The position numbers and the translations under genes are program-made. Below are positions 10,144-54,351 of a stretch of 64,000 bases of DNA, piece by piece (position 1 is the first letter of the stretch; the number at the start of each line of letters is the position of its first letter). This DNA comes from an uncultured Gammaproteobacteria bacterium (GTDB lineage: Bacteria > Pseudomonadota > Gammaproteobacteria > CAZDOC01), in assembly GCA_964506945.1 (NCBI GenBank), contig CAZDOC010000003.1, positions 65,142 through 129,141 on the forward strand, read 5' to 3'. The notes under the pieces were generated by a model. It was not told the origin of the DNA, made no database searches, and worked only from the letters and a program-made list of their open reading frames with translations.

Positions 10144-11888
10144 TTCGACCCGCCCCCAGCGGTGCCAGTCATGCCGGAATCCCCTTGCGGCAGGTGCATG
10201 GCGATATGCATCTGCCCCAGTTCCCGGCTGTTGTCCGGGGCCACCGCCAGCATGCGCAGACTCTCTCCCATCACCCGCGCGAACAGCGGCGCCGCCACCT
10301 GGCCGCCATAATAGGAACCGGCGCTGGGTTCATCGATCATCACCGCGATCACCAGTCGCGGCCGGCTGGCGGGGGCCATGCCGGCAAATACGGCCAGATA
10401 GCGATCCACGGCATAGCCGCCTATGATCGATTTATGCACCGTGCCGGTTTTGCCGGCGACACGATAACCCGTGACCTGGGCGCGGCGGCCGGTGCCCCGG
10501 GTGATGACGGTCTCCAGCATCGTCCGGACCTGGATCGCGGTGGCCTCCCGCATGACCCGCCGGCCGATCACCGGCCGCTCCCGCTTCTCGATACTGAGTG
10601 GCAAGGCCATGCCGTCGTTGGCGAGGACGACATAGGCCTTGGCAAGCTGCAGCAGGCTCATCGACATACCATAACCAAAGGCCATGGTCGCCTGGCCTAT
10701 CTCCCGCCAGTCACGATAATCGACCAGTCGTCCGCTGGTCTCGCCGGGGAATCCGCCTCCGGGAACCTGGCCGAATCCAACCCGTTCATACATATCCCAG
10801 AGTTGCCGGGGATCCAGCGACAGGGCAATACGGCTGGCGCCGACATTGCTGGACTTGGTGATCACGCCGGTCACGTCCAGGCGGCCGTAATTGTGGGTAT
10901 CGCGGATGGTGTGGGTACCCAGTTTGTAGAAACCCGGGGCGGTATCGATCGGGGTCGTAGGGGTATAGGCGCCGCTTTCCAGCGCCGCGGCGATGGTGAA
11001 GGGCTTGATGGTCGAACCCGGCTCGAAGGCATCCGTGACCGCGCGGTTACGGACATAGGCATCCTTCATCTCGCTGCGGTTGTTGGGATTGTAGGAAGGC
11101 TGATTGGCCATCGCCAGGATCTCGCCGGTATGACTGTCGATCACCACGATCGATCCGGCCTTGGCCTGAAATTGGACCACCGCAGCCTTCAGCTCCCGGT
11201 AGGCGATATACTGAATGCGCCGGTCTATGCTCAGGAACAAGTCCCCGCCCCGTTGCGAGGTTCGCAGTCCCTCGACATTTTCAACGATCCGGCCGCGGCC
11301 ATCCTTGATCACGCGCTTGGCCCCCGGGCTGCCCCGCAAACGTGCATCGAAGGCCAGTTCCACTCCCTCCTGGCCGTGATCATCGACATTGGTGAACCCG
11401 ACCACGTGCGCGGCCACCTCACCGGCGGGATAATAGCGATGGAACTCCCGCTGCAGGGAGACGCCATTGATGCCCAGGGCCATGACCCTGGTGGCCATGT
11501 CTGGCGCCACGTGCCGCCGCAGGTAGACGAAACCGCGGGTTCTCCGCGGCAACACCAGGTCTTCCAGCTGTTTGCCCGTCACACCCAGCGCCCGCGCCAG
11601 CACCGGCCATTGCGACCGTGCCCGCATCAACAGCCTGGGGTTCGCCCATACGGAACTGACCGGGGTGCTGACCGCCAGGGGTTCACCATTGCGATCCAGG
11701 ATCATGCCCCGATGGGCGGGGGTTTCGACCACGCGCAGATAGCGTGCGTCACCGTGATCCTGCAGAAATTCCTTGCGCAGCAACTGCAGGTCGGCCGCTC
11801 GCGCGAGCAGCAACATGGCCGCGACGCTGAACAGTCCGACCAGGAACCAGCGACGACCGCTGACTGAAGGGATGCCCGGATCACTCAT
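10140..11888 (-). CDS. ftsI: Peptidoglycan D,D-transpeptidase FtsI (PBP3)
   Basis: 582-aa ORF with N-terminal TM anchor, PBP dimerisation and transpeptidase motifs (STIKP, KTGT); dcw position. Confidence 0.9.
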   Translation of the reverse strand: MSDPGIPSVSGRRWFLVGLFSVAAMLLLARAADLQLLRKEFLQDHGDARYLRVVETPAHRGMILDRNGEPLAVSTPVSSVWANPRLLMRARSQWPVLARALGVTGKQLEDLVLPRRTRGFVYLRRHVAPDMATRVMALGINGVSLQREFHRYYPAGEVAAHVVGFTNVDDHGQEGVELAFDARLRGSPGAKRVIKDGRGRIVENVEGLRTSQRGGDLFLSIDRRIQYIAYRELKAAVVQFQAKAGSIVVIDSHTGEILAMANQPSYNPNNRSEMKDAYVRNRAVTDAFEPGSTIKPFTIAAALESGAYTPTTPIDTAPGFYKLGTHTIRDTHNYGRLDVTGVITKSSNVGASRIALSLDPRQLWDMYERVGFGQVPGGGFPGETSGRLVDYRDWREIGQATMAFGYGMSMSLLQLAKAYVVLANDGMALPLSIEKRERPVIGRRVMREATAIQVRTMLETVITRGTGRRAQVTGYRVAGKTGTVHKSIIGGYAVDRYLAVFAGMAPASRPRLVIAVMIDEPSAGSYYGGQVAAPLFARVMGESLRMLAVAPDNSRELGQMHIAMHLPQGDSGMTGTAGGGSK

Positions 11889-13656: not shown

Positions 13657-13960
13657 GGAAATCAGGTGTTTTTTTGTGAACCAGTTCCCTTTCAGAACAG
13701 GGACTTAGCTTACAGATCCTCGGGAGGCTCTAATACTGCGGGGGCTATGGCCCCAGACTCTTCATTTACATCATCATGTTGCCATTGATAAGTAATAATT
13801 CACATTAAGTCCACCCCCGCTGTGCGGTCACTGCGGGAGGAATATCGGCAAGGCGCGGAAGAGATCCGCCACCAGGGGCGGCGGCGGCCGGCAAAGCCGC
13901 GTTTCCCGGGCCGGCAAGGGAACGCCCAGGGACGGACGTTTCCTTGCCGATATGGAAAAA

Positions 13961-14341
13961 ACGAGCCGGTCTGTAAGCCGGGTTCTGTACCATCCAGTGA
14001 TGGTGGCAGCCATTCATCTAGGCCGTGCGTCGCCGCACGGCTCCAGCGACCTACCCGGGGACTGGCGCGGACCACGCCATGCCGCTCATGGCGGCCCGCC
14101 CCCCTATTTGGTCTTGCTCCGGGTGGGGTTTACCCTGCCACCGGCGTTGGCCGGCGCGGTGCGCTCTTACCGCACCTTTTCACCCTTGCCGGCATGCCCG
14201 GGGGCATGCGTAGGCGGTATGTTTTCTGTGGCACTTTCCGTGGGCTCACGCCCCCCAGGCGTTACCTGGCACCCTGTCCTGTGGAGCCCGGACTTTCCTC
14301 TGTATCGAATCAAGGATACAGCGACTGCCCGACCGACTCGG
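13961..14341 (-). ncRNA. rnpB: RNase P RNA, bacterial type A (M1 RNA)
   Basis: Minus strand contains GGAAAGTCCGGGCTCC, AGGGTGCCAGGTAACGCCTGGGGGGCGTGAGCC, GGTGAAAAGGTGCGGTAAGAGCGCACC, CTAGATGAATGGCTGCCAC, ACAGAACCCGGCTTACAG. P1 can form between 5' GAGTCGGTC and 3' GACCGGCTC. Ends in a U-tract. Ends approximate (+/-5 nt). Confidence 0.9.
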
Positions 14342-14395: not shown

Positions 14396-15241
14396 TCACG
14401 GATCCTGTTTCAAGGCCAGCGCCAGCTGGTACAGACTGTTCCTGCGCCCACCGACGATCTCAGCCGCGGCCGAGGCCGCCTGCCCGGCGGGCAGATGTCC
14501 CAGCAGGATGCGCAGCACACGTTCATCCTCGCGGGCATCCTGCGCCTGTTCGCCGGCACCCTCCACCAGCACCACGATCTCCCCGCGGCCGCGGTTCTCA
14601 TCGGCCCGCAGCCAGTCCTGCAGCGCCGCCAGGGTATCGCAGTGTACACTCTCGTGGATCTTGGTCAGTTCCCGCGCGACGCAGACCCGGCGCCCGTCGC
14701 CAAAGACCTCGGCGAGCGTGCCCAGCATCGGCAGCAGCCGATGTGGCGCCTCATAGAATATCAGCGTGCGCGACTCATCCACCAGCCCCTCCAGCCGCGT
14801 CCGGCGGGCGGCCTCCCTGGCCGGCAGGAACCCTTCGAAGCAAAAACGGTCGGAAGGCAGACCGGATACCGACAGCGCCGCAATCAGGGCGCAGGGTCCG
14901 GGTATGGCCCGGACCGGGATCCCCCGCGACCGCAATCCGCGCAACAGACGGAAACCCGGATCACTGATCAATGGGGTACCGGCATCCGAGATCAGCGCCA
15001 GGCTCCCCCCCGCCTGCAATTGCGCCGGCAGGGTTTCGCAGAGCGCGGCCTCGTTGTGTTCGTGGCAGGCACGCATGGGCGTGGTAATGCCATAATGGCG
15101 CAACAAACGCGCACTGTGACGGGTATCCTCGGCCAGTATCTGATCCACCTGACCGAGTACCGCCACGGCGCGGGGACTCATATCCTCGAGGTTGCCGATG
15201 GGCGTCGCCACCACATACAAAACCCCTTTCTCAATTGACAC
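14396..15241 (-). CDS. rsmI: 16S rRNA (cytidine1402-2'-O)-methyltransferase
   Basis: 281-aa tetrapyrrole-methylase-fold protein (VLYVVATPIGNLEDMSPRA...LISDAGTP); likely GTG start. The 981-aa ORF 14396..17341 in the track is an antisense read-through artefact across lpoA. Confidence 0.85.
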   Translation of the reverse strand: MSIEKGVLYVVATPIGNLEDMSPRAVAVLGQVDQILAEDTRHSARLLRHYGITTPMRACHEHNEAALCETLPAQLQAGGSLALISDAGTPLISDPGFRLLRGLRSRGIPVRAIPGPCALIAALSVSGLPSDRFCFEGFLPAREAARRTRLEGLVDESRTLIFYEAPHRLLPMLGTLAEVFGDGRRVCVARELTKIHESVHCDTLAALQDWLRADENRGRGEIVVLVEGAGEQAQDAREDERVLRILLGHLPAGQAASAAAEIVGGRRNSLYQLALALKQDP

Positions 15242-15310
15242 CTGACACCGCCCCCCCGGATACTGTGAAGCCTGCTGATATCGCTGCCGTAATACCGTAA
15301 AGAGGACATT

Positions 15311-17241
15311 ATGCCGTTTCCCTACCGCTTGCCACCACCGCGGACCCTGCTGACCCTTGCCGCCCTGATCGGCATGGCCCTGCTGCTCGCCGCCTGTGGC
15401 CCCGAGACCACGGTGAAGCCACAACAGGTGACCGCGCCTGCGGACGCCAGGGCCTGGCGACTCCTGCAACAGGGACAGCCGGCGGCGGCCGCCGCGGCCT
15501 TCATGGCCCTGGCGGCCAGCAGTGATGCCGGGCTGGCGCGAGGCTATCGCCTGCATGCGGCGGACGCCTTCCTGCAGGCCGGTGACATGGACAATGCCGA
15601 CAAGACCCTGAGTGCCCTGTCCGATGAGGGACTGACACCCGCGCAGAGCGCGCTGCGCGCCCTGCTTCGGGGAGAGATCCAGGTTCAGCGCCATCGCCCC
15701 AGGGAAGCCCTGGAAACGATACGCCCGCTGGACCCGAAACAGCTGCCCCCCCCCCTGCAGGCGCGTCTCCATCGCCTCCGCGCCGCGGCCTATGATGCCA
15801 TGGGCAATGCCCTGGAGAGCGCCCGCGCGCGGGTCGCCCTGGATCGATACCTGTCCACCGAGGCCGAACACGAGGCCAACAATGCCGCCATCTGGGCCGA
15901 TCTGAAGCGCATCAGACCCAAGGTCCTTAGCGAACTCCTGCCCGCCAGGGCCGATACCCTCTCCGGCTGGATGGAACTGTCCATCATCGCCCGCACCGAT
16001 GTCCTCGATACGAAGCTCTTCGCCGAGGCCATCTCCAGCTGGCAACAGCGATATCCGCAACACCCGGGGATGCGCTCGCTGGTCTCGAAACTGACCGAAA
16101 CCAGCAAGATACTCGATGTCAGCCCGGCCAGCCTGGCCCTGCTGCTGCCCTCCAGCGGCCGCTTCGCCGGTGCCGCCGCGGCCATCCGTGACGGCTTTCT
16201 GAGCGCCTGGTACACGGATCCCAGGGCGGACAAGCCGCCCATCAGGATCTATGATGCCAATGCCGCGAATATCGATTCCGTCTATCGGCAGGCCGTCGAT
16301 GACGGCGCGGAACTGATCGTCGGCCCCCTGGACAAGGCCGCGGTCGAATCCCTGGCCGCACGCAGCGAACTGCCGCTGCTGACCCTGGCCCTGAACCAGG
16401 TCGACAGGCCCAGCAACAGCAAGGCCGCTGACCCTCGACACCGGCTGCTGCAATTCGCCCTGGCCCCGGAGGACGAGGCCCGCCAGGTGGCCGAGCGCGC
16501 CTGGTTCGATGGTTATATCAACGCCCTGGCCCTCACCCCCGAGGGCGAGTGGGGACAGCGGGTCATCAAGGCCTTCAGTGACCGCTGGCTGGAACTCGGA
16601 GGCAAGCTGCTGTCTCAACAGGGTTTCAAGCCCGGGGCCGCGGATCTGTCGGCACCGGTCAAGCGCCTGCTGGGCATCGATGCCAGCGAGCGCCGCCGCA
16701 AACGCCTGCAGGCCAGCCTGGGGGAAAAACTGAAATTCGAGGTGCGCCGGCGCCAGGATGTGGATTTCGTCTTCATGGCCGCATTCCCGCGCGACGCCCG
16801 CCAGCTCCGCCCGCTGTTGCGTTTCTTTCACGCCAGCCAGGTGCCGGTGTACGCCACCTCGCAGGTATTCAGTGGCAAGCCGGATGCCGAGGCCGATCGG
16901 GATCTGAACGGCTTGATCTTCGCCGACATGCCCTGGGTGATCGATCATGGTGGCGGCTCGCCAGCCCTCTATCATCAGATCCAGCGTGACTGGCCGGACA
17001 CCGCCGCACGTTACACACGCCTCTATGCCCTGGGCATCGATGCCTATGGCCTGATCCCGCACCTGGGCCGCCTGCAGGTCAATGACTATGCCAGCTATGA
17101 AGGCGAGACCGGCAGCCTGAGCATGGATGCCGGCGGCCATGTCCACCGGCAGCTGAGCTGGGCGCGGTTCCAGGATGGCCTGCCGGTACCCCTGGCCGCG
17201 GAGGCTGCATCCAGCCCCCTGCTGAGCGCCAGGCTGCCCCG

Positions 17242-17245
<4 letters not shown>
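15311..17245 (+). CDS. lpoA: Penicillin-binding protein activator LpoA (lipoprotein)
   Basis: 644 aa with lipoprotein signal (LLLAACGP), N-terminal TPR-like region and C-terminal periplasmic-binding-like domain; conserved rsmI-lpoA-yraN-diaA-dolP synteny. Confidence 0.8.
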
Positions 17246-18257
<1,012 letters not shown>

Positions 18258-18867: not shown

Positions 18868-18930
18868 GTTTGCCCCGCCGGGGATGATCACGTTCGCACT
18901 TCAGCTCCGACATCCGTTCGTCCGAAGCCG

Positions 18931-20193
18931 CTATTCCACGCCGTCGATGACCAGATTACGCCATTCACTGGTGGCGATACCCACCCCGTTTTTGTCTATG
19001 GCGACAACACGCCAGCGCAAGGCATCCCCGGCATATCGCTGCAGCCAGGGCGGCGCCCTGTAGCTGGACCCGGTGGACTTGACGATCGCCGACAACACGG
19101 GCCCCTGGTCATTGACCAGCTCCAGCTTGTAGAAGGCCGTATCGGGGTGGTTGATCCAGGTGAATTCCAGTTTCGTGGGGAGGATCCGGGCATCGCTACC
19201 CGGCAGCATCAAGCCGATCCGGCCCCTGGCCACCGGGCGGTCCAAGGCTTCCTCCTCCGTTCCCACATAATAGCGGAGTACCGGCAGCGGGAAACCGGCC
19301 ACCCCTCCGCTGACCGCAACACCCGCCAGGGTGTTTGAATCGCCTTCCTTGTCGTCCGTGGCCTCTATGCGCAGCAGGACACGGTACAGGCCACCGCCGT
19401 CCGTGGTCGGCCTGATACGTCTGGGTCCCGGCAGATAATAGCGACCCGTCGGGGGCAGAAACACTTCGAACCGCTCCAGCAAGGTATATCGTTTTTGCGT
19501 GCCCCGCTGTTCCACGGGTAATGTCGCCTCGGTCAACAGATCGCGCGTACTGGGCTCCGCGTCACCGGGATAGACCAGTTCCCAGCGGCCCTTCAGACGC
19601 CCGCTACCGTTATAGCGGATATCGGCCCCGAAATCGGGCAACGGCTCGCCGGTTCCAACGGCCAGGATGGCCTTGTCCCCGCCCTTGGCCGCGAAGCTGA
19701 TCTTCACGTCGGTCAGGGCGAAGGGCACCCTGGCGCCTCCTCCCGCCATCCTGCAGGTCACGGTGACAAAGGTATCGACCCCACCATTGCGGAATTGCCG
19801 GACGTAGAAGAATTCCGACGAATTGCCCCGCAAGGCCTCCTGGAATGCCCGCCTGGTGACGGAATCGGGGATGGTCATGATGTCGGTGAAATTTTTCACT
19901 CCCCCGGTACCACTCACCGTGGACTGGTCGTTGCGCAGGGGCAGACTGCCGAAGATCGTTCCCGGAACACAGGGATTGAAGCCGAGCACGCCGGTTGCGG
20001 TGACATCGCCACACCAGAAGGCGGCAACGGCCCGTTCCCCCGCCGCCAGTCCCTGGAAGGTTATGAATACCGTCGTCGGGCCATGAGAACTGACATTGAC
20101 GCCGGTCGGGTTTCGACCGGTTATGGCGTCTGCCGCCGACGCCAGCAGCCACAGACAGACAATGAGTAAAGTGCGATATTTAGGTGCCATCAC
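18931..20193 (-). CDS. Hypothetical secreted protein (420 aa, cleavable signal peptide), translationally coupled to the upstream beta-barrel gene
   Basis: Long ORF with N-terminal signal (MAPKYRTLLIVCLWLLASAADA); only 11 nt separate it from the preceding stop; no family recognised. Confidence 0.6.
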   Translation of the reverse strand: MMAPKYRTLLIVCLWLLASAADAITGRNPTGVNVSSHGPTTVFITFQGLAAGERAVAAFWCGDVTATGVLGFNPCVPGTIFGSLPLRNDQSTVSGTGGVKNFTDIMTIPDSVTRRAFQEALRGNSSEFFYVRQFRNGGVDTFVTVTCRMAGGGARVPFALTDVKISFAAKGGDKAILAVGTGEPLPDFGADIRYNGSGRLKGRWELVYPGDAEPSTRDLLTEATLPVEQRGTQKRYTLLERFEVFLPPTGRYYLPGPRRIRPTTDGGGLYRVLLRIEATDDKEGDSNTLAGVAVSGGVAGFPLPVLRYYVGTEEEALDRPVARGRIGLMLPGSDARILPTKLEFTWINHPDTAFYKLELVNDQGPVLSAIVKSTGSSYRAPPWLQRYAGDALRWRVVAIDKNGVGIATSEWRNLVIDGVE

Positions 20194-20204
20194 AGGGTTC
20201 CGGA

Positions 20205-22508
20205 TTAGAACAGGCTGATACTCAGACCTGAATTGACCGACCAGGTTCTGGCCGAACTCGAAAAGCCAAAGCTGTTATCGAGACTTTCACTCTCCTGAAA
20301 GGTGTAGCGGACAAACAGCGAGCCCGGGATTTTCCGCTCACCTATGGATGGCAGGGCAAAACTCCAGTTGAGCTGGGCCTGGCCATTGTTGTCCATACGC
20401 TGGGCGATCGACAGATCATCATCCTGGCGGGTATGGGTAAAGTTTGCATTCAGCGACCAGTTCTCCAGAAAGCGCCAGTCCAGCCCGGTATTGACCGTAT
20501 TGGTATGGCTGACGTTACCCGCTGCGATATCCTTGTTATCGACCATGGAGTAGGACACATTCAGGTTGAGCCGATCCAGGGGATTGATGGAGATGGAGAA
20601 GTCGTTACCGAAATTGCGGAAATCGTTCAGTGTACGTCCGACCTGCTGATTGTCCTGCCAGGAATTGGAATAGGTATAAGCGGCCGACCAGCGGGGACCG
20701 GACCAGTTAAGCCCCAGGCGCTGGTCCCGGTTGAACTGTTTCGGCAGATGACTGCCGCCATTGAAACCGCTCAGGGCGCCAGTCGGATTGTTGCCCGCCT
20801 TCTGGCGTACCTCGTTGACGGAATAGGTGGCATTGGGGATCAGGTACTGCACCAGCCCCGGAGGCCGGAATATCGTACCCAGCGGCACATTCAGGTTCAT
20901 TGACCGGGTGTAGGTCTTGGTCCGCAGCAGGGTCGGTATGTTATCGACATTGTCATGCGTATCGACATAGACATACTGCAGTGAAACACTGTTGATGGAG
21001 GCGCTGAGACTGTACTGGTCCTTGACCACATCGGGAGTGACGAAGGCGCCTATCGAGCGGTACAGGGCATCGGCCTGGTCGCGCCGGTATCCCAGCGTCA
21101 GGCTGACCTGATATCCCTCTGCCGGCGAATACTGCCGCAACAGATCGTAGGCCACATCCGTGGAATAGGCGCTGTCGGCTTCCCGCTTCACGGGCAGGGC
21201 ATTGCCGTTGGGATCGATCACTGGATCGGCGGGGTTGACATAGTTGCTGCGGGCAAAGAGGACACTGCCACGCAAACGTCCGCCGGGCGTGCTCCCCGAC
21301 AGGGTGACGCCATAACCATCACTTTGCTCTGCATCGACCACTTCCCCGATATTGAAGTTGGTCTCGTTCCTTTTCGAGGCTGTCATATAGGACACCTCCG
21401 CCCGCAACCCGCCGGGACGGTCCTTGATGAACTCGAGCCCGACCGTGCCCGCGGTGATATTGTGCTTGCCGAGGTCCCGCAACCCGAAGAAATTGTTGAA
21501 CCCGACGATACTCGTGGCATTCATTGTATTGAACGAGGCATCGAGCCGATCGCTGAAGCGGTGATACAGGACCAGTCCACGGCTGGCGACATTGTTGATG
21601 AGCAGGGGGTTGCCGCCGTAGCTGATGTGCCCCAATTGCAGGCGGCTGTCGCCTTTCTGCACATCGATCAGGTAATCGTTCATGTCATACTTCGGCGCCC
21701 GCCCGCCCAGTTCGCCAAATCGCAGGGCCTGCTGGCGGTTGGAGAAGCCTGAGAGATTGATCGAGGTGTCTATCACCAGGTCCCCACGGCTATGCCGGGT
21801 GACCAGTCCGGCCTGGATCTCGGTATCCTTGAAGGTACGCCGCCTGGGGCGGGGCGCGTCTTTCTCGAAGGAAAAATGATTCCGGGTATTGACGGAAACA
21901 TCCAGCCTGGGGGCAATCTCGGCTTGCTCGAAACCGGATCCCGTCAACACCCGCAGGGGCCGCCTGGCCAGTTCCTGCCAGTCCTCCGGTCCCCTGGCCA
22001 GATACACGATCAACTCGTGCGCCCCTGGGGACAGCGCCACCACGCCCCCGGGGTAGACCAGATCCGCCTCGCCCCTGATCCTGAACAGGGCGGACATGTC
22101 GATATTATCGACGAAGACCTTGAGAAAGCCCTCCGCCGGATCCGGGATGCGATCGAAACCCAGGCTGATGCCATCGCTGACCGCGAGCCACTTGTCGTCA
22201 GCGAAATTCGTGGCCTTGAGCATGACCGGGACAGCCGCCGGGGCGGCGTCCACCATCGCCTCCGCGGGGGTCTCATCATCAGGGAAGTCCATGCCCTCGA
22301 AGGCATTATCGAGGTCATCGCCGCCGGCATCGGGCGCCGCCTCACCCTGCGCGTCCGTGGCCGTCGGCGTTTCCGCCGGGATCACGACATCGTCGAAGGC
22401 GTCATCGAAGACAGCGCTGTCCGCGGCGGCAAGCGGCGCAGCGAAGCAGGCGAGGATGGCACCGATCAGCAGCATGCCGTGGAGACCGACGACTTTCAGA
22501 AGCCGCAT
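20205..22508 (-). CDS. Large outer-membrane beta-barrel protein with acidic N-terminal extension (uncharacterised)
   Basis: Signal peptide MRLLKVVGLHGMLLIGAILACFAAPLAAA; Asp/Glu-rich about 90-aa segment; then about 550 aa of alternating Y/F/W-rich strands ending ...NSGLSISLF (C-terminal Phe typical of OMPs). The track ORF extends to 22631 but the signal-peptide Met is at 22508. Confidence 0.65.
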   Translation of the reverse strand: MRLLKVVGLHGMLLIGAILACFAAPLAAADSAVFDDAFDDVVIPAETPTATDAQGEAAPDAGGDDLDNAFEGMDFPDDETPAEAMVDAAPAAVPVMLKATNFADDKWLAVSDGISLGFDRIPDPAEGFLKVFVDNIDMSALFRIRGEADLVYPGGVVALSPGAHELIVYLARGPEDWQELARRPLRVLTGSGFEQAEIAPRLDVSVNTRNHFSFEKDAPRPRRRTFKDTEIQAGLVTRHSRGDLVIDTSINLSGFSNRQQALRFGELGGRAPKYDMNDYLIDVQKGDSRLQLGHISYGGNPLLINNVASRGLVLYHRFSDRLDASFNTMNATSIVGFNNFFGLRDLGKHNITAGTVGLEFIKDRPGGLRAEVSYMTASKRNETNFNIGEVVDAEQSDGYGVTLSGSTPGGRLRGSVLFARSNYVNPADPVIDPNGNALPVKREADSAYSTDVAYDLLRQYSPAEGYQVSLTLGYRRDQADALYRSIGAFVTPDVVKDQYSLSASINSVSLQYVYVDTHDNVDNIPTLLRTKTYTRSMNLNVPLGTIFRPPGLVQYLIPNATYSVNEVRQKAGNNPTGALSGFNGGSHLPKQFNRDQRLGLNWSGPRWSAAYTYSNSWQDNQQVGRTLNDFRNFGNDFSISINPLDRLNLNVSYSMVDNKDIAAGNVSHTNTVNTGLDWRFLENWSLNANFTHTRQDDDLSIAQRMDNNGQAQLNWSFALPSIGERKIPGSLFVRYTFQESESLDNSFGFSSSARTWSVNSGLSISLF

Positions 22509-22627
22509 GAAGCATCCGGTCACCTCCACCGCCCCTGACCTCCCAATAAAACACTGGGCATTTCTGTGATATTCATTATGAAAGAGCGATATTCTCTTGA
22601 TTGTTCTTATATGGCAATGCCGGCAGA

Positions 22628-25600
22628 TCAATAGTTTCCAATGTCGAAAAACACGCGCCCGCCGCTCACAGGATAGACCGCCTTTATGCGCTTGGCGCCC
22701 GAGAAACGCACGATCGTGTTCAGCCCATCGATCAGGGCCGTCTCAATGGCCTGCTTGTCTATCCCGCCATTGACACCGGCGTTGATCTTGCCCAGCAGCC
22801 ATCCCTTTATCAGCGACAGGGGAATGTTGGAATTGGCCACATCGAGACTGAAATCACTGGCGAACTCCAGCCGTGTATCGCGTAGTGGCGTCAACTCGCC
22901 CTGCCGATTGACAAATGCATGGATGACGATCCTGAGTTCGGGCGATATCAGGTCCCCGGTGACCGCCCGGCCGAATGCCCTGCCCACGATCTCGTTGCCA
23001 CTGGTTTCGAAGGGGACCGTGATCGTGAACGTCAGCTGTTTCGTGCCACTGACCGTGGTCGACAGGGTCGGGCTGTTGGCGCTCATGTCGGCGATATCGA
23101 TATGCACCCGCCCCCCCAGACCATCATAGGGCGGAACCTCGAAAGTGGTGCTATCACCCAGCAGCGAGATGCTGCCGCTACCGATGGGAGCCCCTATGGT
23201 CGCGGTGAACTGGCTCAGCAGCCCATTCGCCCAGTCGGCATCCAGGACCCAGTAGGCGAACCGTGACATCTTGCGGGTAACGCCATTCACGCGGTAGTCG
23301 GCTCCGCCCAGCGTATCATGGACACTGATGTAGCCAGCTTCAAATCCAGTGTCCCTGAAATTGCTGACCTTGGCCTTGATGAGGTCGAATGTACCGGCCT
23401 GGCTGCGCTGCATTATCCTTGCCGCAACCCGGCCAACTTTCACTTCGGTGATACCGCTAAAGTTGTGTCCCTGCAGATAAAAAACACCATCGCTGCTGTC
23501 CGGATTCTGTAACAGGGCGGGATCGACGATGCCCTTGCCGTGGATCTTCTGTCCGCCAAGACCGGGCCGGTAGTCGTCTATCCACATGTCCGTGATCTCG
23601 GGCTCGGCGGGGAAGTCGCCTACGAACCGGAATGAAATGGAGAACACCAGCTTCCGTATCTCGCCCTGGGGTGTGGTGATTTCCAGATAGGGTAATGTCA
23701 TGGTGACTTGTCGATTGTTCTTCCATGCCTCAAGACGATCACGGCTGGGCTGGAGGACATAGGTCGCGCGCCGACCCGTATCATTCCTCACCGTGTCACT
23801 CAGGCCGCCCCATCGGTAGTGACTCCATCCCGGACTGGCGCAGGCATCCAACTCGATATTCCTTCCGGGTTCGTAGGTCACCATCAGGGGCTGCTGGAAC
23901 TGGATCCAGTAATCTCCATAGGGAGCCGGCGTTGCCGAGTCGAAATCGAGGGTTCTGGTTTCTCCGCCACAGGGGATCTCTATGGTCACGGAGTGCCGGT
24001 TTCTCGTCGCGGTGGCGGCAGCCTGCACCGCGCTGGCGACACTGGCACTGCTGGCGGTGGTCGATGATGTCGTACCACGCGCCTGGTGCTGCCTGCCGTT
24101 TGTCCTGCCAGCGGACGCCGCTGGACGCCGTGTATCCTTGACCTTAGCCTGCTGGGCGGGAACCCCGCCTGGCCGCCGTTCCTGCAACAGGGCAGTCGTC
24201 CCAGCCGCCGCAGGCGCCTTGCGCGACGGCGCCATGCCCCGCTTGCCGGCGGGAGCCGATGAGGACCCGGCCGCAGTAAGCGAGGTCCTGGAACCTGGGC
24301 CCTTCGCCCCCTGCCTGGACGTCTGCACAGGACCGTCCGCCGCCCGCAGCAAGCCCACCTGGATGGATTTCACCGGGCTCCGGACCCTGCCGGTATCCAG
24401 GGCAACGACGCTCAGCCCCTGGTCGCCGCCCTTCGAGGCAATCAGGTCCATGGTGAAGACTTCTCGCTTCCTGAACGGTGCCCTGGCCTTCAGCGTCCGG
24501 CGCTTGCCGGCATAACTGGCCGCAATGGCCACCACGCCGGCATCATCCGTGGCGGTGATGCTCGCCCGGAACTTCTGTCCCGGTTTTATCTTGGCGGGGA
24601 TGGAGATATTCGTCACCTGCGGGGGCTGATTGGCCCTGGCGCCCACGCCTCCGCGGCCTGACGCGGCGGCCCTGGCGGGGGTCCGGACGGGAGGCCGCGC
24701 AGCCGCGGCGGCGACCTGGGCTGCGGGCTTCGCCGGCCGCCTCCTGGTGGCCGCCTTGCCGCGTGGGGCCTTGGCCGCCACGACCGGTTTCACCTCCGCC
24801 GCCGCCGAGGCCCTGGCCGCCACCGTGGCGGTCCCCGCCGGGGCGTTGGCGGAGCTCCCCGCCCGTTGCCCCGCGGCGCGGCCCGGTCTGGCCGTCGCGG
24901 ACCGGCTCACCGGGGTGTTGACCGCCACCGGCCTGACCGTCTTCGCCTTGGCGGTACCGGAATTGGCCCTCGTGGTGGCCGCATTCACCCGGCTCACCCG
25001 CAGCGTCGCCGTGCCAACGGGCCGTTTGTTCCGGTCCCTCAAGATCAGCACATAGCGGCCTGGCGCTTCCTTCTTGTCCAGCCCCAGGGTCACCGTGCAC
25101 TGGCTCGCAGAGGGACAATTCAAACTGGGGTTGAAGCTGGCCACGGACCGGGGCCCCTGCATCACCACCACGCTGCTGGCCGCACCCAGAGCCTTGCCGG
25201 TGAGGCTCAGGGTCCGTTCGTTCCCCACCTGCAAGACCACCGAGGCCGGCGTCAGCTTCAGCGGTTGTGGCAGCTTGACCACTGGCCTCGGTGGCGTCTT
25301 CCCAGGTGTCCTTGCCGCCGTGTTGGTACTGGACCGCGTGGCCGCCACCCGGCTCACCGGGGCGACCGTGGGCGCCGGCGCGACGCGCCGACTCGCGGCC
25401 TGGCGGGACTTCGTCGCCACCGGGGCGGTGGTGATCTTCACTACCCGCAGGGCCGCGCTGGCCACCGGCAGCTTGCGGGCGGACTGCAGCATGACCACAT
25501 ACACGCCCCTGCGGATACCCGCCCTGGGCGTCAAGGTGACCTCACAGCGTGTCGCGCTGGGACAGTTCAATGCCATGCCGGCGTGCTGGCTGGGCTTGCC

Positions 25601-25792
25601 CCCCTGGTACAACACCACCCTGGCGGCCTGAGTCAGATCCTTGCCGCTCAGGGTCAAGCTCTGGACCCGGCCCACGCTCAGGCTCACCGACGCCGGTGTG
25701 ATCACCACGCGCTGCGCCGCCTGCACGCCCAGGCAGACGAACGATAGCAGCAACAGATACGGCAGTGTGTTTATCTTCCTGTTGGTCATCCT
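22628..25792 (-). CDS. Large secreted/surface protein with tandem Ig-like domains separated by basic Ala/Pro/Arg/Lys-rich linkers and an about 450-aa C-terminal globular domain
   Basis: Signal peptide MTNRKINTLPYLLLLSFVCLGVQAA. Two homologous about 90-aa modules (VVITPASVSLSVGRVQSLTLSGKDL... / LKLTPASVVLQVGNERTLSLTGKAL...) plus a third degenerate one; long low-complexity basic linkers. The track ORF extends to 25873. Confidence 0.65.
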   Translation of the reverse strand, partial: RMTNRKINTLPYLLLLSFVCLGVQAAQRVVITPASVSLSVGRVQSLTLSGKDLTQAARVVLYQGGKPSQHAGMALNCPSATRCEVTLTPRAGIRRGVYVVMLQSARKLPVASAALRVVKITTAPVATKSRQAASRRVAPAPTVAPVSRVAATRSSTNTAARTPGKTPPRPVVKLPQPLKLTPASVVLQVGNERTLSLTGKALGAASSVVVMQGPRSVASFNPSLNCPSASQCTVTLGLDKKEAPGRYVLILRDRNKRPVGTATLRVSRVNAATTRANSGTAKAKTVRPVAVNTPVSRSATARPGRAAGQRAGSSANAPAGTATVAARASAAAEVKPVVAAKAPRGKAATRRRPAKPAAQVAAAAARPPVRTPARAAASGRGGVGARANQPPQVTNISIPAKIKPGQKFRASITATDDAGVVAIAASYAGKRRTLKARAPFRKREVFTMDLIASKGGDQGLSVVALDTGRVRSPVKSIQVGLLRAADGPVQTSRQGAKGPGSRTSLTAAGSSSAPAGKRGMAPSRKAPAAAGTTALLQERRPGGVPAQQAKVKDTRRPAASAGRTNGRQHQARGTTSSTTASSASVASAVQAAATATRNRHSVTIEIPCGGETRTLDFDSATPAPYGDYWIQFQQPLMVTYEPGRNIELDACASPGWSHYRWGGLSDTVRNDTGRRATYVLQPSRDRLEAWKNNRQVTMTLPYLEITTPQGEIRKLVFSISFRFVGDFPAEPEITDMWIDDYRPGLGGQKIHGKGIVDPALLQNPDSSDGVFYLQGHNFSGITEVKVGRVAARIMQRSQAGTFDLIKAKVSNFRDTGFEAGYISVHDTLGGADYRVNGVTRKMSRFAYWVLDADWANGLLSQFTATIGAPIGSGSISLLGDSTTFEVPPYDGLGGRVHIDIADMSANSPTLSTTVSGTKQLTFTITVPFETSGNEIVGRAFGRAVTGDLISPELRIVIHAFVNRQGELTPLRDTRLEFASDFSLDVANSNIPLSLIKGWLLGKINAGVNGGIDKQAIETALIDGLNTIVRFSGAKRIKAVYPVSGGRVFFDIGNY
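25050..25770 (-). repeat. Diverged tandem intragenic DNA repeat encoding the two Ig-like modules
   Basis: Segments about 25080-25290 and 25530-25740 align at roughly 70% identity (e.g. gtcaccgtgcactggctcgcagagggacaattcaaactgg vs gtgacctcacagcgtgtcgcgctgggacagttcaatgcc). Confidence 0.6.
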
Positions 25793-25897
25793 CGCATTCA
25801 CTGGCGCTGAACTCCGTTGGGCAATACGGCCTAAGGTGAGGATAGGCAATCCACAACCGTCACGGTATCCCATGAATTGGGGGTGCCGGTCCGGCCC

Positions 25898-26617
25898 TCA
25901 GCGGAGGCGGTCAGCACAGATACCCCAGATCTCCCTGCGATAGACATGCAGCTGGTAGGCGATATCGCCAGTAGGCTCCTGATGCCACTTGATCTTTATT
26001 GGGCTGCATTGCAGGCAGCCCGGCTCGGGCCGGGACAGGATCCTGGCCAGGCCATAGCGCCCTTGCTGCAGCAGTTGCGCATGATCGAATATCAGGGCCC
26101 GGTGACGACATGCCGGCGGCGAATTGCCGACCTGATAGCTGTCCACCCCCTTGTCCCCGACCGACCTGCTGGAACTGCGCGCAAATACCAGCAGGTCCTT
26201 CACCGTACCCGCCGGGATCATCCGTGCTATCGACCTGCCAGGACGGATCACCGGCCTGATCGTATAGTGGCGGCTGTTGCTGCCACCCTTCTCGGCCACC
26301 ACCTGTACCTGCACCCGCAGGCCCTTGTTCAAATCCCTGATCCGGACCTGTATCCGGGTCTCCTCCCAGGATTCGATCTGGACGCTGTATTTCAGGCCGT
26401 GACCATAATCGGCGATGACCTCACAAGCTTGACAGCGCTGACCAAAATCATGGCCTGAAAGGGTGACCCGGTTCTCCTGGGCACCCTGGAGTGACAGTAT
26501 GGAGGGACTGGACTGCGCCCCGCAGATGAGCGGCATGAAGCAGCACAGGCCTGTGGGCAATAACAGATACCGTCTGCTGATCCTGCTATTGCCCCGGCAT
26601 GGTATCGCGACCTTCAT
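25898..26617 (-). CDS. Hypothetical small secreted protein with an Ig-like module related to the repeats of the large neighbour
   Basis: 239-aa ORF; hydrophobic N-terminus (YLLLPTGLCCFMPLICGA); ENRVTLSGHDFGQ resembles the TLSG/SLTG core of the neighbouring repeats. Confidence 0.5.
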   Translation of the reverse strand: MKVAIPCRGNSRISRRYLLLPTGLCCFMPLICGAQSSPSILSLQGAQENRVTLSGHDFGQRCQACEVIADYGHGLKYSVQIESWEETRIQVRIRDLNKGLRVQVQVVAEKGGSNSRHYTIRPVIRPGRSIARMIPAGTVKDLLVFARSSSRSVGDKGVDSYQVGNSPPACRHRALIFDHAQLLQQGRYGLARILSRPEPGCLQCSPIKIKWHQEPTGDIAYQLHVYRREIWGICADRLR

Positions 26618-26767
26618 GGTTCATGGATTATGTTCCGGAACGGACCAGTGTCTATCCCGTAAATAGGGGAGCCCCGCAACGGCACCCGGGCGGGGCAGGC
26701 CCCGACACCGCAGGCGCACCAGCACCCGGGGGTCCACGGCTCCGGTATCCTTGCTCGAAATCTTCGT

Positions 26768-28660
26768 TCAGGGGTCTGCCGTGGCGATGGGCAGCCAGAG
26801 ACTGACCCGGGTGCCGGAATCATCGGAAATCAGCTCGAAGAGGGCGCCGATCCGCTCCGCCCTGCGGCGCATATTGTCCAGGCCCCTGCCGCCGGATGCC
26901 GGTTCGCGCATGCCCCTGCCGTTGTCCTGAATCTCGACGATCACCCCAGGGAGGTCCCCGCTGTTCATCTCCCGGGTCAGGATCCTGATCTCGCTGGCTT
27001 TGGCGTGCTTGATGATATTGCTGATCGCCTCCTGCAGGATGCGCAATACCTGCAAGACCTTCTCTGGACCCAGCCCCGAGACCCTGGGGATATCGCTGAC
27101 ATGCCATCGCATCATGATGTTGCTTCGTTCGAGGCGTGGCTGGATCCGGGATCGGTACATGGCCAGCACGCTATTCAGATCATCCTCGACCGGGTCCAGG
27201 GAATCGATCATCACCCGCAGGTCATCGAGCGCGCCGTGCAGGGCATCGAGGATCTCTTCCCTGCTGGCATTACTGGTCTCGACCATCGACAGTGTCGAAA
27301 TGAGATGGCCACCCATACCATCGTGCATCTCCCGCATGATGCGCTCGCGTTCCATGATCAGCACCTGTTCCTTCTCCATCTGACGCAGGCGCTGGTAGTT
27401 GCGCTCCAGTTCCTGGTGCTTCTCCGCGACGCGCATGCCCAGCTCTATGTTGAGCCGCTCCGCTTCATCCAGGGCCTTCACAAAACGCGTCAGCAGGATC
27501 CAGCTGAAGATCAACAGCGGGACGGGCGCGGCATAATGCATCATCAGGCCATTCTCCCGGCTCACGAAGTCGTTCAGCATCAGCCAGTCATGAACGCCGA
27601 AGACTATCAGCAGGAGTCCGGACAGGAGCAGGAGATAGGCCCCCACATCGCGCTGCTTGCGGTACTCGTACATCAGCAACGATGCCGGATAGATCCCCAG
27701 CAGCAAGGACAGGGTATCGACGACACGATGACCCACGGTGGGCAACAGGCTTTCCGGCACCAGCAGCAGCGCGATCGCGCCGATCGTCCCGGCGATCACC
27801 AGGCCTCCCTCCAGAAGGTGACGTTCCACGCCGGTGAATCTGTGTACGAACAGGGTCACCAGGATCACGAACCAGGCCATGGTCGTGAACCACAACCATT
27901 CCCAGACATGGCTGGAGGTGGGTATATGGGTCACGAACAGGTTCAGGTTGTGGATGGCCCAGACGAAGAGCACCAGGGAGAACCAGCCGTAAACCGAATC
28001 CCGCCGGTGCAGATACCACAGCACGCCCATGAAAAAGCCCATGACCACCATGCTCCCGGTCAGGATCCGGGCGATCGTCACCTTGAGAAAATACCGCAGT
28101 TCATAGGCCGGCCGCAGCACTTCATCCGGCGCCAGATGCACCTTCCCCAGATAACCCGATCCGGGAGACAGCGCCGCGATCCTGATGACCACGATGTTTT
28201 CACCGGTATTCAACATGCCATTGGGGATCATGAAATACTGCGGGGTGTTCCAGTTCCGGGTCATCGGCGCGTCAAAGCGCCCGCCATCACCGAGCAGGTG
28301 TCCGTTCAGATAAACCGCCGTATTCATGTTGATCGTGGGCAGAAAGATCGCCCACAGGCGATTGGGCGACACGTTCAGGTCCAGGGCAAACCGGTACCAG
28401 GCATTGTGCGACTGGGTATCGGCATGCCGCCAGTCATCAGGAAGTACGCCAGGGCGCCAGCCGGCATTTCGTGAGGGGGGGGTGACGCCATCCTGATAGA
28501 GGACAGTCACCTCATCCATGGTCAGGATGTTGTCCGGCAGCCAGGATTGCGCCAGATAGCCGACTATCGACACGGTCGCCGGCAGGCCGAAGAATACCAG
28601 GCCTATGACCAGCATCCAGCTGCGCCTGGCGCTACCCGCCGAATTCGTACCGTCACTCAT
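26768..28660 (-). CDS. Sensor histidine kinase, 7TMR-DISM type (periplasmic 7TMR-DISMED2 domain, 7 TM helices, HisKA_3 and HATPase_c)
   Basis: 630 aa; N-terminal signal/TM, about 170-aa periplasmic domain, seven hydrophobic helices, then REMHDGMGGHLISTL (HisKA_3 H-box) and ILQEAISNIIKHAKAS...DNGRGM (ATPase N/G boxes). Confidence 0.85.
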   Translation of the reverse strand: MSDGTNSAGSARRSWMLVIGLVFFGLPATVSIVGYLAQSWLPDNILTMDEVTVLYQDGVTPPSRNAGWRPGVLPDDWRHADTQSHNAWYRFALDLNVSPNRLWAIFLPTINMNTAVYLNGHLLGDGGRFDAPMTRNWNTPQYFMIPNGMLNTGENIVVIRIAALSPGSGYLGKVHLAPDEVLRPAYELRYFLKVTIARILTGSMVVMGFFMGVLWYLHRRDSVYGWFSLVLFVWAIHNLNLFVTHIPTSSHVWEWLWFTTMAWFVILVTLFVHRFTGVERHLLEGGLVIAGTIGAIALLLVPESLLPTVGHRVVDTLSLLLGIYPASLLMYEYRKQRDVGAYLLLLSGLLLIVFGVHDWLMLNDFVSRENGLMMHYAAPVPLLIFSWILLTRFVKALDEAERLNIELGMRVAEKHQELERNYQRLRQMEKEQVLIMERERIMREMHDGMGGHLISTLSMVETSNASREEILDALHGALDDLRVMIDSLDPVEDDLNSVLAMYRSRIQPRLERSNIMMRWHVSDIPRVSGLGPEKVLQVLRILQEAISNIIKHAKASEIRILTREMNSGDLPGVIVEIQDNGRGMREPASGGRGLDNMRRRAERIGALFELISDDSGTRVSLWLPIATADP

Positions 28661-29318
28661 CGAGTCTGATGATCCCCAGTTGCATGGCCTCGAAAACCGC
28701 CTCTCCCCGGGATCTTACCGAAAGCTTTTTATAGATATTCTTGATATGCGAGGTCACGGTATGCCCTGACACGTCGATGATCCCGGCGATCTCGTTATAG
28801 CTGAAACCCTTGGCTACATAACGGAGGACCTCTGTCTCTCTTTCCGTCAAGTGGGGTGCGTCTGCGTTACCGCCCACTTCGCCGCGATGCTGTCCGCCCT
28901 GGAATCGTCGCAACAAATGTCGCGCGATCGACGGACTCATCGGCGAAGCCCCCCCCGCGAGTTCGATGATTGATGCGCCTATCGCATCCATGCTGCTGTC
29001 CTTCAGCAGATAACCCGATGCCCCGGCCTCGATGGCCGAGAGCACATGTCGTTCATCACCGAACACGGTGATGACCATGATCTCCGTATCGGGGTATTGC
29101 CTGACCGTCTCCTCGATGATCTCCACCCCTTCCCCATCCGGCAGTCCCAGGTCCGTGACCAGGATATCCGGGGCCTGCCGCGCCAGGACCTCCCGGGCGG
29201 CATGGCAGCTATCCACCGCGGCCAACAGGCTCAGGCCCCGATGTCCGGTGATGGCCTGGGCGAGCTTGTTGCGCGTATTGGTGTCATCCTCGACCAACAT
29301 CACGGAATACGGTGGCAT
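28653..29318 (-). CDS. NarL/LuxR-family response regulator (REC and HTH_LuxR)
   Basis: SVMLVEDDTNTR...DILVTDLGLPDG receiver and C-terminal LTERETEVLRYVAKGFSYNEIAG...TVTSHIKNIYKKL LuxR HTH; 8-nt overlap with the kinase gene; start at MPPYS preceded by AGGGG. Confidence 0.88.
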   Translation of the reverse strand: MPPYSVMLVEDDTNTRNKLAQAITGHRGLSLLAAVDSCHAAREVLARQAPDILVTDLGLPDGEGVEIIEETVRQYPDTEIMVITVFGDERHVLSAIEAGASGYLLKDSSMDAIGASIIELAGGASPMSPSIARHLLRRFQGGQHRGEVGGNADAPHLTERETEVLRYVAKGFSYNEIAGIIDVSGHTVTSHIKNIYKKLSVRSRGEAVFEAMQLGIIRLDE

Positions 29319-29370
29319 GGCGGTGCCCCTGCCCTTGTCAAGGAAACCCTGATTAATCCAGAGTTTCCGC

Positions 29371-29412
29371 GGCACATGGATGTGCCCTGATAATTCATGA
29401 ATGAATTATCAG
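29371..29412. promoter_or_regulatory. Two adjacent perfect palindromes upstream of the response-regulator gene (candidate operator)
   Basis: GGCACAT-GG-ATGTGCC (29371-29386) immediately followed by CTGATAATTCAT-GA-ATGAATTATCAG (29387-29412); AT-rich in a GC-rich genome. Confidence 0.45.
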
Positions 29413-33792: not shown

Positions 33793-34896
33793 ATGAAGCC
33801 CCATCGCCACCTGCCATTCCTGTTACAGAGCCTCATCGCGGGGCTGGCCATCGCCTTCGTGGCCGTGGTCCTGAAACCCTCGCTACTGGGTCCTGCGGCC
33901 AGCCGGACGGGGGCCATGAACGGCGGTTTCGCCAGTGCGGTGGCCCTTGCCGCCCCTACCGTCGTCAATATCTATACATCGAAGCTCGACCGCCGGCGGG
34001 ACAATCCCCTCCTGCGTGATCCGCTGTTCCGGCGTTTTTTCGGCGACAAACTGCCAGAGCCCGGCAACCTCAAGCAATCCAGTCTCGGTTCCGGGGTGAT
34101 CGTCAGCGAGGACGGTTACATCCTCACCAATCACCATGTCATCCGGGGCGCGGATGCCATCGAGGTGGCCCTGTATGATGGCCGTCTGGCCCAGGCCACC
34201 GTGGTCGGCACCGACCCGGAGAGCGACCTGGCGGTACTGCGTATCGAGCTGTCGCACTTGCCGCGGATCACCATCGAGACCGGCACCAAACCCCGGGTGG
34301 GAGATATCGTCCTGGCCATTGGCAATCCCTTCGGCGTAGGCCAGACCGTGACCCAGGGCATCATCAGCGCCACCGGCCGCAACCGCCTGGGCATCAACAC
34401 CTTCGAAAATTTCATTCAGACCGATGCCGCCATCAACCCCGGTAATTCCGGGGGCGCCCTGATCAATACCCGTGGCGAGCTGCTCGGCATCAACACCGCC
34501 ATCTTCTCCGAAAACGGTGGCTATCAAGGCATCGGTTTCGCCATCCCCATGGGTATCGCCAGCAATGTGCTGCAACAGATCATCGACCATGGCCGGGTGA
34601 TCCGGGGCTGGCTGGGATTACAGGTACGGGATATCACCGTACATGGGGATCTGGCGGCGCGGCTCGGACGCCGGCGCGCGGTCCTGGTCGTCGGCGTACT
34701 GGCGGAGGGACCGGCACTGCAGGCCGGACTGCGGGCCGGGGACATCCTTGCCGGCATCGCGAAGCAAGCGATCCGTGACTCGCGCCAGGCCATCGATCTG
34801 ATCTCCAGCCTGTCACCCGGCACGCTGACCCGGATTGCGCTGCTGCGTGACGGGGTGCCGATAACCGTACGGGCGCGCATCGGCAAGCGCCCCTGA
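33793..34896 (+). CDS. degS: Periplasmic serine endoprotease, DegS-like (trypsin fold and single PDZ, N-terminal membrane anchor)
   Basis: Catalytic-triad motifs (HH in TNHHVI, GNSGGAL), one PDZ domain, single N-terminal TM helix. Confidence 0.85.
   Translation: MKPHRHLPFLLQSLIAGLAIAFVAVVLKPSLLGPAASRTGAMNGGFASAVALAAPTVVNIYTSKLDRRRDNPLLRDPLFRRFFGDKLPEPGNLKQSSLGSGVIVSEDGYILTNHHVIRGADAIEVALYDGRLAQATVVGTDPESDLAVLRIELSHLPRITIETGTKPRVGDIVLAIGNPFGVGQTVTQGIISATGRNRLGINTFENFIQTDAAINPGNSGGALINTRGELLGINTAIFSENGGYQGIGFAIPMGIASNVLQQIIDHGRVIRGWLGLQVRDITVHGDLAARLGRRRAVLVVGVLAEGPALQAGLRAGDILAGIAKQAIRDSRQAIDLISSLSPGTLTRIALLRDGVPITVRARIGKRP

Positions 34897-54274: not shown

Positions 54275-54351
<77 letters not shown>

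Follow-up and report, generated by a model that had tools for sequence, protein, structure and literature searches.

A giant exported protein with Ig-like modules, polycationic disordered linkers and a rare C-terminal head in an uncultured gammaproteobacterium

A stretch of 64,000 nucleotides (nt) from an uncultured Gammaproteobacteria bacterium (contig CAZDOC010000003.1, positions 65,142 to 129,141; hereafter the window, in whose own numbering all positions are given) encodes on its minus strand a giant protein that combines a Sec-type signal peptide, three modules with a predicted immunoglobulin (Ig)-like fold, extremely basic disordered linkers, and a C-terminal head that belongs to a rare protein family. 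The strong positive charge of its N-terminal part is not conserved in the only full-length ortholog, and the gene lies in a cluster of four co-oriented genes built around a large outer-membrane-type protein (OMP). We tentatively favour a reading in which the giant protein would be a flexible tether, built like beads on a string, that holds out a binding head and whose polycationic stickiness would be specific to this lineage.

Domain architecture of the giant protein

The minus-strand open reading frame (ORF) runs from 22628 to 25873 without interruption and comprises 1081 codons when counted from its first ATG, and the residue numbers used throughout refer to this ORF. The first ATG (25873) would add 28 residues without signal-peptide character, while plausible starts are the ATG at 25789 (1053 amino acids (aa); JGI and NCBI gene calls) or the GTG at 25801 (Logan gene call), the latter with a GGAG 10 nt upstream. 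The start at 25792 given in the preliminary description of this region coincides with no start codon and lies one codon upstream of the ATG at 25789. With either start the same Sec-type signal peptide was read from the sequence (25715..25789, minus strand), namely MTNRKINTLPYLLLLSFVCLGVQA/AQ with the cleavage motif VQA/A, and the equivalent signal peptide of the ortholog P0002 ends VYA/VE.

An AlphaFold2 model of residues 54-625, built on a shallow, hand-checked alignment, placed three all-beta blocks behind the signal peptide. Module 1 (residues 54-147; 25433..25714, minus strand), which contains the conserved Cys pair NCPSATRC, was modelled with a predicted local distance difference test (pLDDT) score of 91-97, module 2 (residues 203-296; 24986..25267, minus strand) with 86-95, and module 3 (residues 417-511; 24341..24625, minus strand; motif IKPGQKF.A.ITATDD.GV) with 80-92. 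A Foldseek search of the PDB with residues 54-625 returned 434 matches at E<=1e-3, and the best 50 of these were almost all tandem Ig/Fn3 structures (PTP-delta, titin, SYG, SGBP-B) at a probability of 1.00, with module 1 itself covered by tandem-Ig matches. The AlphaFold2 and Foldseek results thus confirm, at the level of predicted structure, that three modules with an Ig-like beta-sandwich fold are strung on disordered linkers. Neither the full-length protein nor any module taken alone matched a Pfam family at E<=10, the IPT/TIG and Big_x families included, and a structure search of BFVD gave nothing specific.

An ungapped alignment of modules 1 and 2 gives 42.6% identity (E 8e-20), and the hidden Markov model of the module-1 family matches residues 202-294 with E 1e-31, which identifies module 2 as a paralog of module 1 and bears out the two homologous modules of about 90 aa reported earlier. 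The third module had been described as a degenerate copy of these two; it is instead a separate Ig-like type, for which BLAST detected no similarity to modules 1 and 2 and which has counterparts of 41-46% identity in P0002 and in a paralog encoded at the P0002 locus. Module 1 shares 36-40% identity with module 1 of P0002, in which module 2 has no counterpart. An hhalign comparison of the module-1 profile with the profile of the IPT-like domain of the head gave a probability of 3% and was not significant.

Three linkers alternate with the modules. Linker 1 (residues 148-202; 25268..25432, minus strand) comprises 55 aa with a net charge of +10 and zero acidic residues, linker 2 (residues 297-416; 24626..24985, minus strand) 120 aa with 40 Ala, 16 Arg and a net charge of +21, and linker 3 (residues 512-625; 23999..24340, minus strand) 114 aa that are rich in Ala/Ser/Gly/Thr/Arg and carry a net charge of +14. 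In the model their pLDDT falls to 41-50 (core of linker 1), 34-42 and 34-48, respectively, and 257 residues of 54-625, all outside the modules, have a pLDDT below 50 and no secondary structure. Calculated segment by segment, the isoelectric point (pI) is 12 for each linker, 10.9-11.5 for the modules and 5.9 for the C-terminal region. The 289 linker residues pooled consist of 26.6% Ala, 12.1% Arg, 11.1% Thr and 9.7% Pro, with 4.8% Lys, and contain 49 Lys and Arg against 4 Asp and Glu; by a binomial calculation, a share of acidic residues this low among 53 charged ones has a probability of 3.5e-11. The extremely basic, low-complexity character ascribed to the linkers at first sight is thereby borne out, including for linker 2, which holds the stretch originally quoted and is encoded at a GC content of 0.79, with 0.89 at third codon positions (GC3). 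Altogether, the N-terminal part of about 570 residues has a net charge of +76 and a pI of 12.0, which is extreme for an exported protein and could serve to study how the Sec machinery handles polycations. A single residue of linker 1 differs between sources (window position ~25369, mature residue 168), being Arg in the window and in the NCBI and Logan versions and Gly in the JGI metagenome version.

The preliminary description had likened these linkers to histone H1 and AlgP. The AlgP/histone-H1-like proteins of Pseudomonas, including PhaF, are cytoplasmic and Lys-based, with many tandem KPAA-type repeats, and their basic disordered sequence binds DNA, polyphosphate or RNA (PMC9239181, PMC12818456). 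The giant protein shares with them a basic, Ala/Pro-rich disordered sequence, but the label does not fit a protein that is Sec-exported and dominated by Arg, and whose linkers are non-repetitive: they contain one KPAA only in 289 residues, no 5-mer recurs, Tandem Repeats Finder reported no relevant tandem repeat, and the linkers do not match one another.

The C-terminal region (residues 626-1081, 456 aa) has no match in Pfam or NCBIfam. Both the Sec export and the unannotated domain of about 450 aa that had been noted before proved to be real. A model built with 26 relatives (pLDDT 83.6, predicted template modelling score 0.77) divides this head into three subdomains. Subdomain 1 (residues 626-752; 23618..23998, minus strand; pLDDT 62-80) is predicted as a beta domain; it contains a conserved pair of Cys and a motif resembling InlB B-repeats and Flg_new_2, which reads Y.PG..V.L.A.A.PGW...W.G. 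Using phmmer, residues 23-90 of the region (ORF residues 648-715) were connected to proteins with eight Flg_new_2 repeats, and an alignment to the motif Y.PG..V.L.A.A..GW.F..W.G of the divergent InlB B-repeats (Flg_new_2, PF18998) reaches 35-45% identity over 31 residues; a direct Pfam scan of the segment was negative. Subdomain 2 (residues 753-867; 23273..23617, minus strand) is predicted as an IPT-like Ig domain with the motif WI.DYRPG..G....G..DP and represents the best-conserved core among the 38 relatives described below; its pLDDT is mostly 89-96, decreasing to 54-82 near the C-terminal boundary.

Subdomain 3 (residues 868-1081, 214 aa; 22631..23272, minus strand; pLDDT mostly 86-95) is modelled as a beta sheet with two long helices and a terminal hairpin. 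It carries the conserved motifs G.P.G.G and FE..G.E..G and is devoid of a four-Cys insert that most relatives have. The sole suggestive fold match was a weak one to Escherichia coli YceB (3l6i_A; Foldseek probability 0.99, target-normalised TM score 0.40, E 7e-3). Its long helices are predicted to lie on a curved beta sheet, which would recall YceB/DUF1439 and other TULIP domains (PMC6791001, PMC5507252), and subdomain 3 may hold a hydrophobic ligand. In contrast to these proteins, the giant protein has no lipid anchor, and a profile of 20 head-family members gave only chance-level PDB sequence matches at E<=10 and Pfam scans no DUF1439.

Relatives of the head, the ortholog P0002 and the linker charge

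A phmmer search restricted to the C-terminal region, covering 1.84 billion representatives, recovered 38 proteins at E<=1e-3; for 16 of these the E-value lies between 2e-53 (P0002) and 1e-10. The relatives are mostly 450-735 aa long and differ in their N-terminal parts, which consist of module-1-type Ig domains, helical repeats or CARDB, whereas the head is common to all 38, with the IPT-like domain and subdomain 3 as the shared parts. The motifs of the family, WI.DYRPG followed by G.P.G.G, FE..G.E..G and a C-terminal GR.F.D, are all present in the giant protein. The head therefore defines a rare family (the giant protein and P0002-P0032) without a Pfam, NCBIfam or PDB sequence relative, yet its structure is predicted with confidence. 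Pattern scans of genome and metagenome contigs for the OMP, module 3 and the IPT-like domain yielded no matching locus, and a search of a plasmid collection yielded no match.

P0002 (1161 aa) is the only full-length ortholog and is encoded on a contig of 41% GC with the same gene order and an OMP that is 63% identical to that of the window. The giant protein evolves much faster than this OMP: its identity to P0002 is lowest in the head (29%) and rises to 36% in module 1 and about 41% in module 3. P0002 carries one extra domain in addition to being devoid of module 2. Its linkers comprise some 100 residues rich in Lys/Glu/Ala with a net charge of ~0, a Thr/Pro-rich stretch of +4, and acidic Ser/Thr/Asp/Glu/Asn-rich stretches that reach -10 or -11 per 40-residue window. 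Consequently, the N-terminal part has a net charge of -21 (pI 4.9) in P0002 as opposed to the +76 of the giant protein, and a pair of orthologs of this kind could serve to study how the charge of disordered linkers evolves. The same locus (L002) encodes at 5145-7016 (plus strand) a 623-aa paralog with module 1, Lys/Glu/Ala-rich linkers and module 3 that has no head and ends in a repeated ITIGxMxITGH, and a 190-aa Cys-containing protein is encoded between this paralog and the OMP gene.

Since the only ortholog has neutral-to-acidic linkers, the polycationic charge appears, from this sequence comparison, to be a property of the lineage rather than a conserved mechanism, and a charge pattern in high-GC low-complexity linkers should generally not be taken as a conserved function unless orthologs have been checked. 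According to the reading we favour, the protein would be exported through Sec and cleaved to its mature form, in which three Ig-like beads would be spaced by disordered linkers of ~50-120 residues that act mainly as flexible spacers, with a compact head at the far end in which a beta domain resembling InlB B-repeats is joined to an IPT-like Ig domain and to an alpha/beta domain of the helix-in-sheet type. The head would be the conserved functional part and would bind a ligand, while the stalk would be plastic, its modules being duplicated or swapped and its linker sequence free to drift. In the high-GC lineage of the window, the linkers would have drifted towards an Ala/Arg/Pro/Gly-rich composition and lost nearly all acidic residues, and the resulting polycation would adhere without specificity to anionic components of the envelope or matrix (lipopolysaccharide (LPS), peptidoglycan, acidic polysaccharide, extracellular DNA (eDNA)), which would probably keep the protein cell-associated. 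The signal peptide and the Cys pairs conserved in the first two modules and in head subdomain 1 would fit an oxidising, extracytoplasmic location.

A distal head carried on Ig-like beads with disordered strings between them is a design already familiar from bacterial surface proteins, and the closest kind are modular tandem-Ig (E-set, IPT/TIG, Big) surface proteins such as adhesin stalks or the SGBP-B of Bacteroides. The giant protein resembles these in its beta-sandwich beads, flexible spacers and distal head, in its fast divergence and domain shuffling, and in its fold matches to SGBP-B and titin-like structures. It differs from them in that it has no Pfam Ig match, in its unusually long (49-116 aa), polycationic linkers, in the absence of a lipoprotein anchor, autotransporter barrel, type I or type IX secretion system (T1SS, T9SS) or sortase signal, and in belonging to an unannotated head family and OMP-centred cluster. 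In the periplasm-spanning envelope proteins of the TolA and TonB type, the folded ends are likewise separated by a long low-complexity middle domain, which is charged or Pro-rich, and the Lys/Glu/Ala-rich linker of P0002 resembles domain II of TolA. The giant protein nevertheless has a cleavable-looking signal peptide instead of an N-terminal membrane anchor, and no TonB/TolA C-terminal domain.

Several observations weigh against the tether reading. The YceB match of subdomain 3 is weak and unsupported by sequence. No export or anchoring signal beyond Sec was recognised in the giant protein, which could therefore simply be periplasmic; for this protein and the products of the three neighbouring genes, Pfam and NCBIfam contained no match to an autotransporter barrel or to a two-partner secretion, RTX/T1SS or T9SS domain, and a chaperone-usher, autotransporter or T1SS adhesin was accordingly rejected. 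The head relatives P0019, P0003 and P0005 are not encoded beside an OMP of this type, and the link to the OMP comes from two loci only. Finally, net-positive linkers also occur in the high-GC relatives P0019 (+16), P0005 (+11) and P0022 (+11), which could point to recurrent selection instead of mere tolerance, although many acidic residues are present in these linkers as well.

The recurrence of positive linkers in these three relatives also speaks for a reading in which the basic linkers are dedicated binders of polyanions such as eDNA, polyphosphate, LPS or acidic exopolysaccharide, and the protein serves as a matrix scaffold or adhesin. For this lineage we consider it somewhat unlikely. In its favour, the depletion of acidic residues is strong and non-random, and the Ig modules, with a pI of 10.9-11.5 vs 8.9-9.0 in P0002, are likewise basic, so that the charge extends beyond linkers that drift. 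A precedent is provided by the mycobacterial HBHA, a surface protein whose Lys/Ala/Pro-rich tail binds heparan sulfate (PMC3293801). As with HBHA, an envelope protein could bind an anionic polymer through a basic low-complexity region; the analogy is functional only, as the two proteins are not homologous, and the basic regions of the giant protein are internal linkers, whereas that of HBHA consists of Lys-rich repeats in a short tail at the C-terminus of a coiled-coil protein, which has no classical signal peptide (PMC3293801). The dedicated role is weakened by P0002, with its neutral or acidic linkers and net-negative N-terminal part, by the absence of a repeat structure or conserved motif in the linkers and by a charge that partly parallels a general basic shift of the exported proteins of the window. 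Binding of polyanions, as proposed in the preliminary description, is physically very likely for a polycation of this composition.

The parallel with other exported proteins leads to a further explanation, namely that the charge has no specific function and results from GC-driven amino-acid usage in unconstrained disorder, combined with an exported proteome that is basic throughout the organism. The coding GC content of the linkers is 0.71-0.79 by segment and 0.75 overall vs 0.44 in P0002; Gly, Ala, Arg and Pro together account for 56.7% of linker residues vs 27.2% in P0002, and Phe, Tyr, Met, Ile, Asn and Lys for 8% vs 20%. As far as these sequences tell, linker composition tracks the genomic GC content, a known behaviour of weakly constrained sequence. 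Moreover, 10 of 11 putatively exported proteins of the window have a pI of 7.8-10.9, with putative envelope or exported proteins encoded at 33793-34896, 39897-40538, 44336-45049 and 10140-11888 as examples, whereas cytoplasmic ones range from 4.6 to 6.3, in a small sample with heuristic signal-peptide calls. Exported proteomes shifted to a basic pI have been described for acidophiles, and the loss of acidic residues may partly be organism-wide in the same manner, as a basic shift of the envelope proteome. Together with the charge not being kept in P0002, these data agree with a neutral origin. However, GC pressure alone would leave Asp and Glu in place, as their GAN codons are GC-neutral, and the OMP of the same cluster is acidic (pI 5.1-5.4). 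Because the GC content does not explain why Asp and Glu are nearly absent, we conclude that a genuine shift has occurred in this lineage, and a charge entirely without specific function appears unlikely.

The OMP-centred gene cluster

The gene of the giant protein is the second of four co-oriented genes, none of which has a Pfam or NCBIfam annotation. The first encodes a small Cys-rich exported protein (25898..26617, minus strand; a 239-aa ORF, 212 aa in the JGI call) which gave a weak match to the IPT-like profile, and a promoter-like site (26627-26654) lies upstream of this gene and only there. Downstream of the giant protein follows the large OMP (20205..22508, minus strand; 767-774 aa), which ends in ...SISLF and which we infer to be a beta-barrel; it has no Pfam match, and no NCBIfam or PDB match came near significance. 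A search of 5.8 billion clusters detected 13 homologs of the OMP, which come from contigs of 37-71% GC, with the close ones (58-63% identity) on contigs of 37-41% GC. The fourth gene, which begins 11 nt after the OMP stop codon, encodes a 420-aa exported protein (18931..20193, minus strand) without a Pfam, NCBIfam or significant PDB match. The OMP differs slightly between the window and the JGI locus L001, so that the two appear to be near-identical strains.

In loci L003-L008 the 420-aa protein is always encoded directly downstream of the OMP at 48-74% identity; with values of up to 74%, it exceeds the OMP itself (63%) in conservation. The gene upstream of the OMP, in contrast, varies by locus and encodes fragments without a BLAST match to the giant protein, a CARDB-like protein or Ig-like proteins. 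As the pair is kept in six further loci while the upstream gene differs, the OMP and the 420-aa protein form the conserved core of the cluster, and the giant protein occupies the variable slot upstream. The pair may represent an undescribed envelope system, and it probably provides an outer-membrane platform for variable Ig-rich proteins that work with it or are displayed by it. The module-1 type was considered as a shared handle for such an OMP system and was not found in the upstream proteins of the other loci. In this sense the giant-protein gene marks a conserved and wholly unannotated OMP-centred cluster on contigs of 37%-71% GC that may turn out to be a new envelope system.

The low-GC contigs of L003, L004 and L005, which carry close OMP homologs, all stop within the gene that precedes the OMP gene, which points to a gene that assembles poorly in these contigs, perhaps owing to repeats or strain variation. 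The truncated upstream protein of L004 (2-874, plus strand) contains two CXXCH motifs (CKKCH, CALCH), which occur in no other protein of any of these clusters, and a porin-cytochrome system was rejected for that reason.

Taken further, the whole four-gene unit could constitute an undescribed outer-membrane system in which the OMP and its 420-aa partner export or display a variable, fast-evolving Ig-rich protein whose +76 stalk, evolved in this lineage, acts as electrostatic velcro on the anionic cell surface or matrix and presents a head that binds a lipid or another hydrophobe. We regard this combination of assumptions as distinctly unlikely; if true, the transfer of such a polycation over the inner membrane, in opposition to the membrane potential, and onward through an OMP would pose an unusual export problem.

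An electrostatic connection to the OMP had also been proposed on the basis of its acidic N-terminal tail. Within this tail (~22224-22424), the motifs FDDAFDD and LDNAFEG occur and zero basic residues are found over ~65 residues, and the polycationic stalk might dock on it, thereby tethering or plugging the OMP or guiding the giant protein to the OMP for export. Besides the strong acidity of the tail, the adjacent, co-oriented position of the two genes behind the single promoter-like site would suit such an interaction. However, the tail motif F[DG]DAFDD[IV], which is repeated twice, is kept in L002 (7813-9780) and in P0040, P0041 and P0042, and the acidic tail is retained in L002-L005, where the upstream products are non-basic (L002) or truncated fragments that do not match the giant protein (L003-L005), while more distant OMP homologs have neither tail nor motif. 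From its sequence, the conserved motif looks like a short linear binding motif for a partner, which suggests a specific interaction rather than bulk electrostatics. With the tail kept where no basic neighbour exists, this part of the original proposal lost ground as well, and we consider the docking reading improbable.

Integrity of the reading frame and genomic surroundings

High-GC DNA yields long spurious ORFs, several of which overlap the region on both strands, and the contigs of the related loci L003-L005 break off inside the corresponding upstream gene, but a pseudogene, a wrong frame or a misassembled repeat can be dismissed for practical purposes, because GC3 is 0.75-0.89 in the called frame of every segment, linkers included, regions homologous to P0002 stand in the same intact frame on both sides of every linker, and three separately deposited records (JGI, Logan, NCBI) contain the same protein with the R/G exchange in linker 1 as the single difference. 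Tandem Repeats Finder detected in the gene no tandem DNA repeat that could collapse in assembly. The doubts about frame and assembly that accompanied the preliminary description are thereby effectively settled. Long antisense ORFs are present at 14396-17341 (minus strand, 981 aa), opposite an lpoA-like gene, and at 24866-25747 (plus strand, 293 aa), opposite the linker-coding region; such overlapping ORFs on both strands are spurious and typical of high-GC DNA.

Just beyond the first gene of the cluster, Pfam matches identified a two-component system consisting of a 7TMR-DISM histidine kinase and a LuxR-type response regulator (26768..29375, minus strand), a possible regulator of the cluster, and LuxR-type regulators or sensor kinases also adjoin the cluster in L007 and L004. 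The block is flanked by petABC-sspAB and dolP-diaA-yraN-lpoA-rsmI-mraZ, a gene backbone that we take to be typical of Gammaproteobacteria. Across 18900-29400, i.e. the four genes and the two-component system, the GC content is 0.58-0.62 save for the linker stretches at 0.71-0.79, and the flanking housekeeping genes have 0.62-0.68. The lower GC content of the cluster, together with the location of the closest OMP homologs on contigs of 37-41% GC, may hint at horizontal acquisition.

PADLOC returned no match, and Rfam no RNA family relevant to the cluster. Elsewhere in the window, a bacterial class A RNase P RNA, which could help to place the organism taxonomically, is encoded at 13958-14340 (minus strand; 325.8 bits) and a tRNA gene at 54275-54348 (plus strand).

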